DNA of 8,444 nucleotides from a virus (lineage: Duplodnaviria; Heunggongvirae; Uroviricota; Caudoviricetes), in IMG/VR virus record IMGVR_UViG_2700989521_000015; one strand, given 5' to 3'. Position numbers and translations under genes: made by a program. The notes under the pieces were generated by a model. The model was not told the DNA's origin and made no database searches. It saw only the letters and a program-made list of their open reading frames with translations. Shown here in pieces: positions 5,756 through 6,196 of the stretch. Position 1 is the first letter of the stretch; each line of letters opens with the position of its first letter.

Positions 5756-6196
5756 TTACTTAATAACAGTAACCACAGCCACAAGCACGGCCATCGCAGA
5801 CAGGACAATACCTGTGAGTAACCAAGTCTGATTTGCAAATGATTTCTGAAGTTCAGTACGATGCTCAGCCATCTCAACTTTCAGAGACTGGCGTAAATCA
5901 GCCATCTCAGACTTCAGGGATTGGCGCGATTCTGCCATCTCAAGCCTCAACCCTTCGCGAATCTCCAGTACATCAGATTTGGTAGCAAAGGATTCGCTTC
6001 TTGTGGTGAGAGTAATCAGGTTGTTTTTGATTTCAGTCACATCACTTTCCAGGCAACTGACCCGCCGTTCAAGGTCGTCATTCATGCCATCACCTCCATC
6101 ATTACCACTTCCTGTTACTTGGTTGTTGGATACATTATAGGCATTCTCTTTCTTTTTTCTGAACCGCGAAATATGTGCAACATTCTCTGCCATCAC
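5756..6196 (-). CDS. Hypothetical tail-anchored coiled-coil protein (146 aa from GTG at 6196, or 145 aa from the ATG at 6191-6193): three tandem 11-residue repeats, then a C-terminal transmembrane helix
   Basis: ORF whose ATG start overlaps the upstream stop as TGATG. Repeats EMAESRQSLKS / EMADLRQSLKV / EMAEHRTELQK, then hydrophobic WLLTGIVLSAMAVLVAVVTVI. No family recognised; architecture resembles XhlA/DUF883-like tail-anchored proteins, inference only. Confidence 0.6.
   Translation of the reverse strand: MMAENVAHISRFRKKKENAYNVSNNQVTGSGNDGGDGMNDDLERRVSCLESDVTEIKNNLITLTTRSESFATKSDVLEIREGLRLEMAESRQSLKSEMADLRQSLKVEMAEHRTELQKSFANQTWLLTGIVLSAMAVLVAVVTVIK

Follow-up and report, generated by a model that had tools for sequence, protein, structure and literature searches.

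Proteins of the DUF1640/CCDC90-like class (PF07798; human CCDC90B and MCUR1, yeast Put6 and Put7, and prokaryotic homologues) are small proteins held in the membrane by a C-terminal anchor, and are reportedly trimers built on a head-neck-stalk-anchor plan. A beta-layer with the consensus [aliphatic]-A-T-K-[polar]-[DE] is found at the start of their C-terminal stalk (PMC4786415). The eukaryotic members are mitochondrial scaffolds (PMC7519068). Here we describe a prophage gene whose product compares with this class. It lies in an 8,444-nucleotide stretch of DNA (IMG/VR virus record IMGVR_UViG_2700989521_000015; hereafter the window) whose left part carries the Escherichia coli genes selO-ydiV-nlpC-btuD-btuE-btuC and whose remainder is taken up by a P2-like prophage (its left end) inserted beside btuC. 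The gene occupies positions 5756..6193 of the minus strand, codes for a 145-amino-acid (aa) protein and displays a 33-bp periodicity. The explanation that we favour, with a probability of roughly 80%, is structural and genetic: the periodicity would be the nucleotide image of a hendecad (11-residue) stalk repeat in a membrane-anchored prophage protein. By its sequence, the protein fits the known class of membrane-anchored coiled coils with DUF1640/CCDC90-like architecture, to which it would be a divergent addition. The repeat is thus explained as an ordinary feature of a known protein class, and a gene annotated as “hypothetical protein”, present in 86 of 5,426 complete E. coli genomes, is now properly described.

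Other systems share parts of this organization. The beta-layer coiled coils (Thermosinus Tcar0761, DUF3782 endonuclease stalks; Hartmann et al. 2016, PMC4786415) likewise feature an A-T-K-type beta-layer that interrupts a parallel coiled coil, and their modules are reiterated in variable number. The Tcar0761-type repeat is a 9-residue beta-layer unit (MATKDDIAN, 14 copies) whereas a single beta-layer followed by 11-residue alpha-helical units is found here. The b subunit of the F-type ATP synthase is another membrane-anchored helical stalk, whose dimerisation domain is a hendecad, right-handed coiled coil that tolerates insertions or deletions (indels) of about one hendecad. However, its anchor is N-terminal, it is a dimer that belongs to a defined machine, and it has no beta-layer; the match of our protein to the NCBIfam subunit B′ is weak (E 0.0011, far below the cut-off) and there is no evidence of homology. 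In trimeric autotransporter adhesins the number of stalk modules differs between strains and sets the projection of the head from the membrane. These adhesins also have trimeric stalks with beta-layer necks and reiterated modules (PMC4786415), but they are far larger extracellular proteins of the outer membrane held by a beta-barrel, compared with 145 aa, one inner-membrane helix and an expected cytoplasmic location here. Finally, the lysogenic-conversion or defence genes of P2-like phages (such as old, tin and fun(Z)) and the cargo of the P2 hotspots likewise occupy a variable slot of P2-like phages with alternative cargo in sister prophages. The interval between int and att of P2 is a minor defence hotspot that holds 3% of the P2 systems (2026 survey, PMC13586616). 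Unlike the P2 accessory and defence genes, the 145-aa protein matches no known defence family.

The gene initiates with an ATG at 6191-6193 and terminates at 5756-5758. The RefSeq annotation of strain ETEC1717 has the same 438-nt gene, and the program-made list of open reading frames (ORFs) begins one codon earlier, at a GTG (6196). Its product matches phrog_9415 (E 1.3e-42) and has 45 close homologues. The protein would consist of a head, a beta-layer neck, a coiled-coil stalk and a C-terminal anchor. It starts with an extension (residues 1-36; 6086..6193) that is basic and ends in a Gly/Asp-rich linker (GNDGGDG); AlphaFold2 modelled this extension as disordered (predicted local distance difference test score (pLDDT) below 50 at residues 1-3 and 11-34). 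The head helix M37-F69 (5987..6085) has hydrophobic residues in the heptad spacing 4-3-4-3 (L41, V45, L48, V52, I55, L59, L62), a best spectral period of 3.58 and block-mean pLDDT values of 90 and 93 over residues 41-60; M37, R44, V45 and E49 are invariant in the homologue alignment. The neck F69-A-T-K-S-D74 (5972..5989) fits the beta-layer consensus, and its K72 and D74 are invariant across the homologue alignments. In the AlphaFold2 model, which was made for the monomer only (mean pLDDT 75), a helix at residues 37-69 is separated by a break at 70-71 from one helix that runs from 72 to 144 into the membrane segment. This break, the only one between the two helices, falls in FATKSD. The head may differ from the one of CCDC90B, being a 33-residue heptad helix preceded by the disordered basic extension and the linker, and the protein is further distinguished from the DUF1640/CCDC90-like class by a dedicated zinc-ribbon partner and by its location in a prophage cargo slot (see below).

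The stalk comprises four hendecads, V75-S118 (5840..5971), delimited from the residue map, the periodicity and the comparison of codons: unit 0 (VLEIREGLRLE; 5939-5971), unit 1 (MAESRQSLKSE; 5906-5938), unit 2 (MADLRQSLKVE; 5873-5905) and unit 3 (MAEHRTELQKS; 5840-5872). Core positions are V75, M86, M97 and M108 (a), I78, S89, L100 and H111 (d), and L82, L93, L104 and L115 (h), and the 3-4-4 hydrophobic spacing characteristic of hendecads extends from V75 through F119. Three of the four units are recognisably repeated in sequence (E-M-A-x-x-R-x-x-L-K-x). Spectral analysis of the stalk gave a power of 20.3 for 3.67 residues per turn and of 0.8 for 3.50; the strongest peak, at 2.20, is the 11/5 harmonic. 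The chain ends with the transmembrane anchor WLLTGIVLSAMAVLVAVVTVI and the terminal Lys (W124-K145; 5759..5824), identified from the sequence: the 21 residues W124-I144 are nearly all hydrophobic and are followed only by Lys145, as in a single C-terminal anchor. There is no N-terminal signal sequence, and head and stalk are therefore expected in the cytoplasm, the protein being probably tail-anchored in the inner membrane. By analogy with relatives of known structure, the stalk would form a parallel, probably trimeric coiled coil.

The periodicity was first seen at the DNA level. An exact search of the window found the plus-strand 9-mer GCCATCTCA at 5868, 5901 and 5934, spaced by exactly 33 bp, with no other copy on either strand. 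Tandem Repeats Finder, a kind of check proposed in the earlier note on this DNA, recovered at 5865-5943 an array of period 33 with 2.4 copies, 81% matches and a score of 98, which is the sole tandem repeat of the window. When the window was simulated 300 times with a first-order Markov model, no 9-mer ever fell into a three-term arithmetic progression. The periodicity of 33 bp is therefore real. The earlier note had described three exact 33-bp tandem repeats; spacing and 9-mer are indeed exact, but the 33-bp units starting at the 9-mers have only 24/33, 20/33 and 20/33 identical positions (61-73%) and the longest stretch common to units is 12 nt. The three peptides that it listed (EMAESRQSLKS, EMADLRQSLKV and EMAEHRTELQK; E85-K117) were read correctly, and the residue map places them, as it had said, consecutively and immediately N-terminal of the transmembrane anchor. 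They are encoded at 5843-5941, however, whereas the segment it had assigned to them, 5868-5966, encodes E77-A109; both segments are registers of the one four-hendecad array (5840-5971).

The reason for the exact 9-mer lies in the protein. In the coding strand it reads TGAGATGGC, located by exact search and the residue map over the codons x-Glu107-Met108-Ala109 in copy 1 (5868..5876), Glu96-Met97-Ala98 in copy 2 (5901..5909), which has the 12-mer TCAGCCATCTCA in common with copy 1, and Glu85-Met86-Ala87 in copy 3 (5934..5942). Since the 9-mer is the reverse complement of nnT-GAG-ATG-GCn, it is mostly forced by the conserved Glu-Met-Ala. Units 1 and 2 are identical in 8/11 residues, but at four of these eight positions their codons differ synonymously. 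Judged from these sequences, the duplication of the unit is old and has been kept at the protein level; it is not a fresh DNA repeat. The plus-strand ORFs that overlap the repeat (5833-5985 and 5921-6247) were rejected as coding sequences because conservation is found wholly in the minus-strand frame.

The same architecture recurs in a large family. A profile of the close homologues identified 764 representative relatives at E <= 0.001. Among the matches listed, 147 relatives of up to 400 residues were analysed: a beta-layer-like motif is found in 127 of them, a hydrophobic C-terminal segment in 122, and the strongest self-similarity is at lag 11 in 76, the estimated number of tandem 11-residue units per relative ranging from 0 to about 10. 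This sample is enriched for the repeat, as the query profile contained it. The consensus unit is EMAELRTELKT (278 units from 68 proteins), and its d position, which was left free by the search pattern, is strongly hydrophobic in 93% of the units. Taken with the 3-4-4 spacing and the power at 3.67, this supports the hendecad-type coiled coil suggested by the earlier note, in which the kinship to a known protein class went unseen. The relatives P0066, P0069 and P0125 reiterate the beta-layer unit rather than the 11-residue unit. PF07798 (CCDC90-like, formerly DUF1640) is the commonest Pfam match, found for 37/69 relatives at E <= 0.001 (best 1.5e-10) and for 5/15 close homologues at E <= 0.01; the window protein has no such match, so that its link to the family is transitive only. 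The alternative cargo protein encoded at the same prophage position in other strains is named “DUF1640 domain-containing protein” in RefSeq and scores 26.5 bits with PF07798 (cut-off 33.5). In a search of the Protein Data Bank (PDB), the homologue profile weakly matched two beta-layer constructs, 7o92 (E 0.007) and 5apt (E 0.028), as well as 6h9l (E 0.12, an alignment that spans neck and stalk only); each of these entries has three chains, which hints at a trimeric assembly. The literature on DUF1640 in phages yielded annotations only, and no function was found there.

An 11-residue period is also a property of apolipoprotein-, LEA- and synuclein-type helices, and the units could accordingly form an 11/3 amphipathic helix lying flat on the inner membrane and not a standing stalk. 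PF01442 (Apolipoprotein) is the second commonest weak match of the family (27/69 relatives, best E 1.2e-16; E 0.064 for the window protein), and apolipophorin and apolipoprotein chains are found at the bottom of the PDB search, the 11/3 periodicity being common to both folds. We regard this arrangement as very unlikely. The hydrophobic residues form a narrow a-d-h stripe, with 2-4 strongly hydrophobic residues per 11 and flanks of Glu, Arg and Lys, which suits a coiled-coil seam and not the half-cylinder of a lipid face. Pro-punctuated 22-mers are absent, the stalk prolongs a heptad helix and a beta-layer motif known from trimeric coiled coils, and the PF01442 score of 13.4 bits compares with a cut-off of 90, which does not place the protein among the apolipoproteins or LEA proteins.

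Near-identical alleles at the same btuC-adjacent locus were compared for the number of their repeated units. A single unit is present in an allele from a sequencing-run assembly (L010), two in alleles L006 and L007 (L007 and the protein P0009 being assigned to Shigella flexneri; about 9 contigs), three in the window and four in alleles L008 and L009 (Shigella dysenteriae; about 10-14 contigs). In the DNA alignment these alleles differ by exactly 33 or 66 bp and the junctions fall inside TGAGATGGC; the additional unit of the S. dysenteriae four-unit allele repeats unit 2 without a mismatch. Two and four units are found as well in a second allele lineage (P0039 and P0033). The prediction of the earlier note that slippage could change the repeat number was thus borne out by natural alleles with 1 to 4 units and breakpoints in the 9-mer, although such changes are rare. 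Probes of 40 nt for the junctions of the 1-, 2- and 4-unit alleles had no match in the 5,426 complete E. coli genomes, among which the three-unit probe, used as positive control, identified 85 of the 86 that carry the gene. No length difference in multiples of 33 bp was present among the 60 gene matches listed. Units that are 61-73% identical are expected to be gained or lost only rarely. In allele L010 (1-1764) the one-unit gene is found in a seemingly rearranged or degraded prophage, where genes for the P2 capsid and scaffold come ~400 bp before it and neither an int nor a zinc-ribbon gene was called in the interval.

These alleles bear on a second alternative, in which the repeat is hypermutable and frequent slippage switches or tunes the protein within populations. 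Length variants on a near-identical background, junctions in the 9-mer and the occurrence of two and four units in the second lineage are what such a contingency locus might produce. Its repeat units would be nearly identical, whereas those found here have 24/33, 20/33 and 20/33 matching positions and share at most 12 nt; the changes are in frame, so that expression cannot be switched off; frequent differences between close strains were not observed, as nearly every complete E. coli carrier has three units and the other junctions are absent; and the named variants are all in Shigella assemblies, where the 2- and 4-unit alleles recur with matching neighbour genes, a pattern that looks like inheritance within lineages. 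Gain and loss of units occurs but is rare, and the gene is not a contingency locus; that slippage serves as a population-level switch is highly improbable. There is hardly any room left for a third alternative, that the 9-mers are DNA sites (for the integrase arm, Cox, integration host factor or as iterons) whose location in an ORF is secondary: they are within about 300 bp of the attL junction and such regions carry directly repeated protein-binding sites, but sister prophages with integrases 97.5-98% identical have no GCCATCTCA on either strand, for which reason a role as recombination-protein sites was rejected, the stretch common to all prophages (5643-5745) excludes the repeats, the conserved Glu-Met-Ala codons account for the 9-mer, and the 11-residue repeat recurs at the protein level in hundreds of unrelated genomic contexts.

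A hendecad stalk would make the behaviour of the repeat intelligible. Eleven residues correspond very nearly to three helical turns, and a change by one unit should therefore keep the hydrophobic seam intact and the head in its orientation while shifting the distance between head and membrane by about 1.6 nm. Because seam and orientation would be preserved, such indels may be tolerated, which could account for the gain and loss of whole units and for the wide range found in the family. Units would be gained or lost by slippage or unequal recombination at the microhomology provided by TGAGATGGC, the Glu-Met-Ala codons. By way of the stalk the head, and probably also the zinc-ribbon partner, would stay at a constant distance beneath the inner membrane. 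The series of one to four hendecads on a near-identical background is a natural resource for studying the role of stalk length in the DUF1640/CCDC90 class.

The partner is a 120-aa protein encoded directly upstream on the minus strand (6193..6555). It has four Cys residues arranged as in a zinc ribbon (C30xxC33G ... C95xxC98G); the CxxCG ... CxxCG pattern, Y104 and W112 are invariant among its homologues, which are found in E. coli, Salmonella, Citrobacter, Lelliottia, Raoultella, Yersinia and Providencia. Searches with the partner gave no notable Pfam, PADLOC or structural match, the best one in PADLOC-DB 2.0 (Cas12a, E 0.03) being at noise level. Its TGA stop runs into the ATG start of the 145-aa gene (TGATG), and translational coupling is therefore likely. 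The partner gene is directly upstream of a coiled-coil-type gene in 7/7 diverged loci, mostly beside an integrase of the P2/186 type. The repressor and int genes precede the 145-aa gene on this strand, with no strong terminator between, and the pair would be transcribed together with them in the lysogen. A GC-rich hairpin with a T run on the host side of attL (5616..5630, minus strand), found in the terminator scan in a stretch matched by all 5,426 genomes, is the likely terminator of this int-orf120-orf145 transcript.

Two translation starts can be recognized in the 145-aa gene. The DNA that encodes the Gly/Asp-rich linker doubles as a Shine-Dalgarno-like sequence, GGAGGTGA (6090-6097), 7 nt before the internal ATG of M37 (6083-6085). 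Linker, internal Met and a long ORF overlapping the partner stop are kept in 7/7 diverged loci (including L002, L003, L004, L014, L015 and L016). This holds also for the locus of the O103 strain, where the long frame overlaps the partner stop though RefSeq annotates the short form only. Public annotations use either start, with products of 145/146 aa or 109 aa, and two isoforms of 145 and 109 aa may be made. A promoter-like site is located at 6163-6134 on the minus strand (TTCAGA, 18-nt spacer, TATAAT; 10/12 matches), inside the N-terminal extension and upstream of M37. As a match to the consensus, it is a candidate promoter of a transcript that would encode the short isoform alone.

The function of the pair can be approached from its context. 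The variable cargo slot, the alternative cargo of sister prophages and an Abi_C protein encoded two genes downstream of a Yersinia pair point tentatively to an accessory module expressed in the lysogen, with superinfection exclusion or abortive infection as the likeliest role; we hold this to be possible, with the odds rather against it. Less probable still, and in our view unlikely, is the more elaborate proposal that the pair constitutes, in the P2 int-att slot, a prophage-borne system of superinfection exclusion or abortive infection whose hendecad number (1-4 at this locus and up to about 10 among relatives) serves as a molecular ruler for the depth of the head and partner below the inner membrane, a change by one unit retuning or diversifying the system. 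The pair, two genes conserved together as a module in the cargo slot of a prophage, is a candidate for phage-defence screens. The Yersinia locus (L014 3001-6221) has the pair, then a gene for a 288-aa protein and then the one with the Abi_C (abortive infection) domain, in the slot after int; the coiled-coil stalk is built there of a different 11-residue unit, INxxQxSLTDK. A Citrobacter 186-like prophage (L004 4606-7443) carries the pair upstream of int, not downstream, and preceded by a gene with a Flk_N domain. Flk is a tail-anchored membrane protein.

Several results weigh against the reading of the repeat as the stalk of a membrane-anchored prophage protein, or against what has been built on it. 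Of the three repeated units, two have a polar residue at d (S89 and H111), which makes the seam weaker than in the family consensus. The window protein passes no Pfam threshold, PF07798 not being listed even at E 0.1, and Foldseek comparison of the monomer model with the PDB gave only matches of E > 5, a search that is uninformative for a long single helix. The protein found no match by tblastn in 50,697 phage records, and at least one distant relative is encoded in an ordinary bacterial chromosome, where yfcL and an acetyltransferase gene flank it. That the pair is expressed from the repressor-int operon is deduced from gene order alone, and the promoter-like site at 6163-6134 could yield an independent transcript. 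As regards function, PADLOC-DB 2.0 gave no convincing match to the 145-aa protein (best LmuB, E 0.0075, over the coiled-coil stretch) and both PHROG families of the pair are labelled “unknown function”.

The neighbouring prophage genes follow the P2 pattern. The P2-type tyrosine integrase is encoded on the minus strand at 6558..7685 (Pfam Int_N E 2.9e-28, Phage_integrase E 7.4e-18); the RefSeq start corresponds to window position 7535 and the program ORF extends to 7685. Upstream of int, in the position of P2 gene C, a helix-turn-helix repressor is encoded on the same strand (7585..7929; start at 7893 according to RefSeq; Pfam HTH_3, phrog_147 E 1.4e-31). A divergent early gene on the plus strand (7990..8268) is Cox-like (phrog_11533 E 1.3e-54; phrog_575 “Cox-like excisionase and repressor” E 1.1e-7). 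When the prophage-end DNA was compared with phage records, the matches listed covered the integrase gene only, at 72-78% identity, and no named phage could be assigned.

A prophage is present at this site in about 300 of the 5,426 complete E. coli genomes, and prophage-free genomes match the window only to about 5630, a position that falls in the hairpin terminator. The phage end beside attL (5631..5755, assigned to neither strand) is conserved whatever the cargo: its segment 5643-5745 is matched by 300 genomes but the cargo genes by only the 86 that carry them. Across some 300 E. coli genomes, a stretch of ~100 bp within 5631-5755 has an identity of about 92-99%, and the phage end is probably the attP arm. 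A direct repeat at about 5720-5741, TGTGGTCA...TGTGGATCA, is a candidate pair of integrase arm sites. The sister prophages carry different cargo in the slot between int and attL, for which at least three alternatives are known. The first is the 120-aa and 145-aa pair (window 5756-6555). The second consists of a 166-aa zinc-ribbon protein and the DUF1640 domain-containing protein mentioned above, which has more hendecads (L002 4098-5136; O103:H2 strain 12009 and an O157:H7 strain). The third is an unrelated soluble protein of 131 aa (L011 2595-2990; O26:H11 strain 11368 and E2348/69).

Some differences from strain ETEC1717 were noted in the host genes. In the window, btuC has gaps of 11 bp (at about 5335) and of 1 bp (at about 4659), which split the gene into ORFs 4593-5426 and 5314-5547; a further 1-bp gap is found at about 4540, between btuE and btuC. 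The window btuC is either a pseudogene or affected by sequence errors. The alignment with ETEC1717 spans window positions 322-8384 and leaves out 1-322 and 8385-8444. At the 3′ end of selO, the window ORF terminates at 300 and the annotated end in ETEC1717 corresponds to about window position 203. Just past the right end of the window, the prophage of ETEC1717 is interrupted by an IS100 element.

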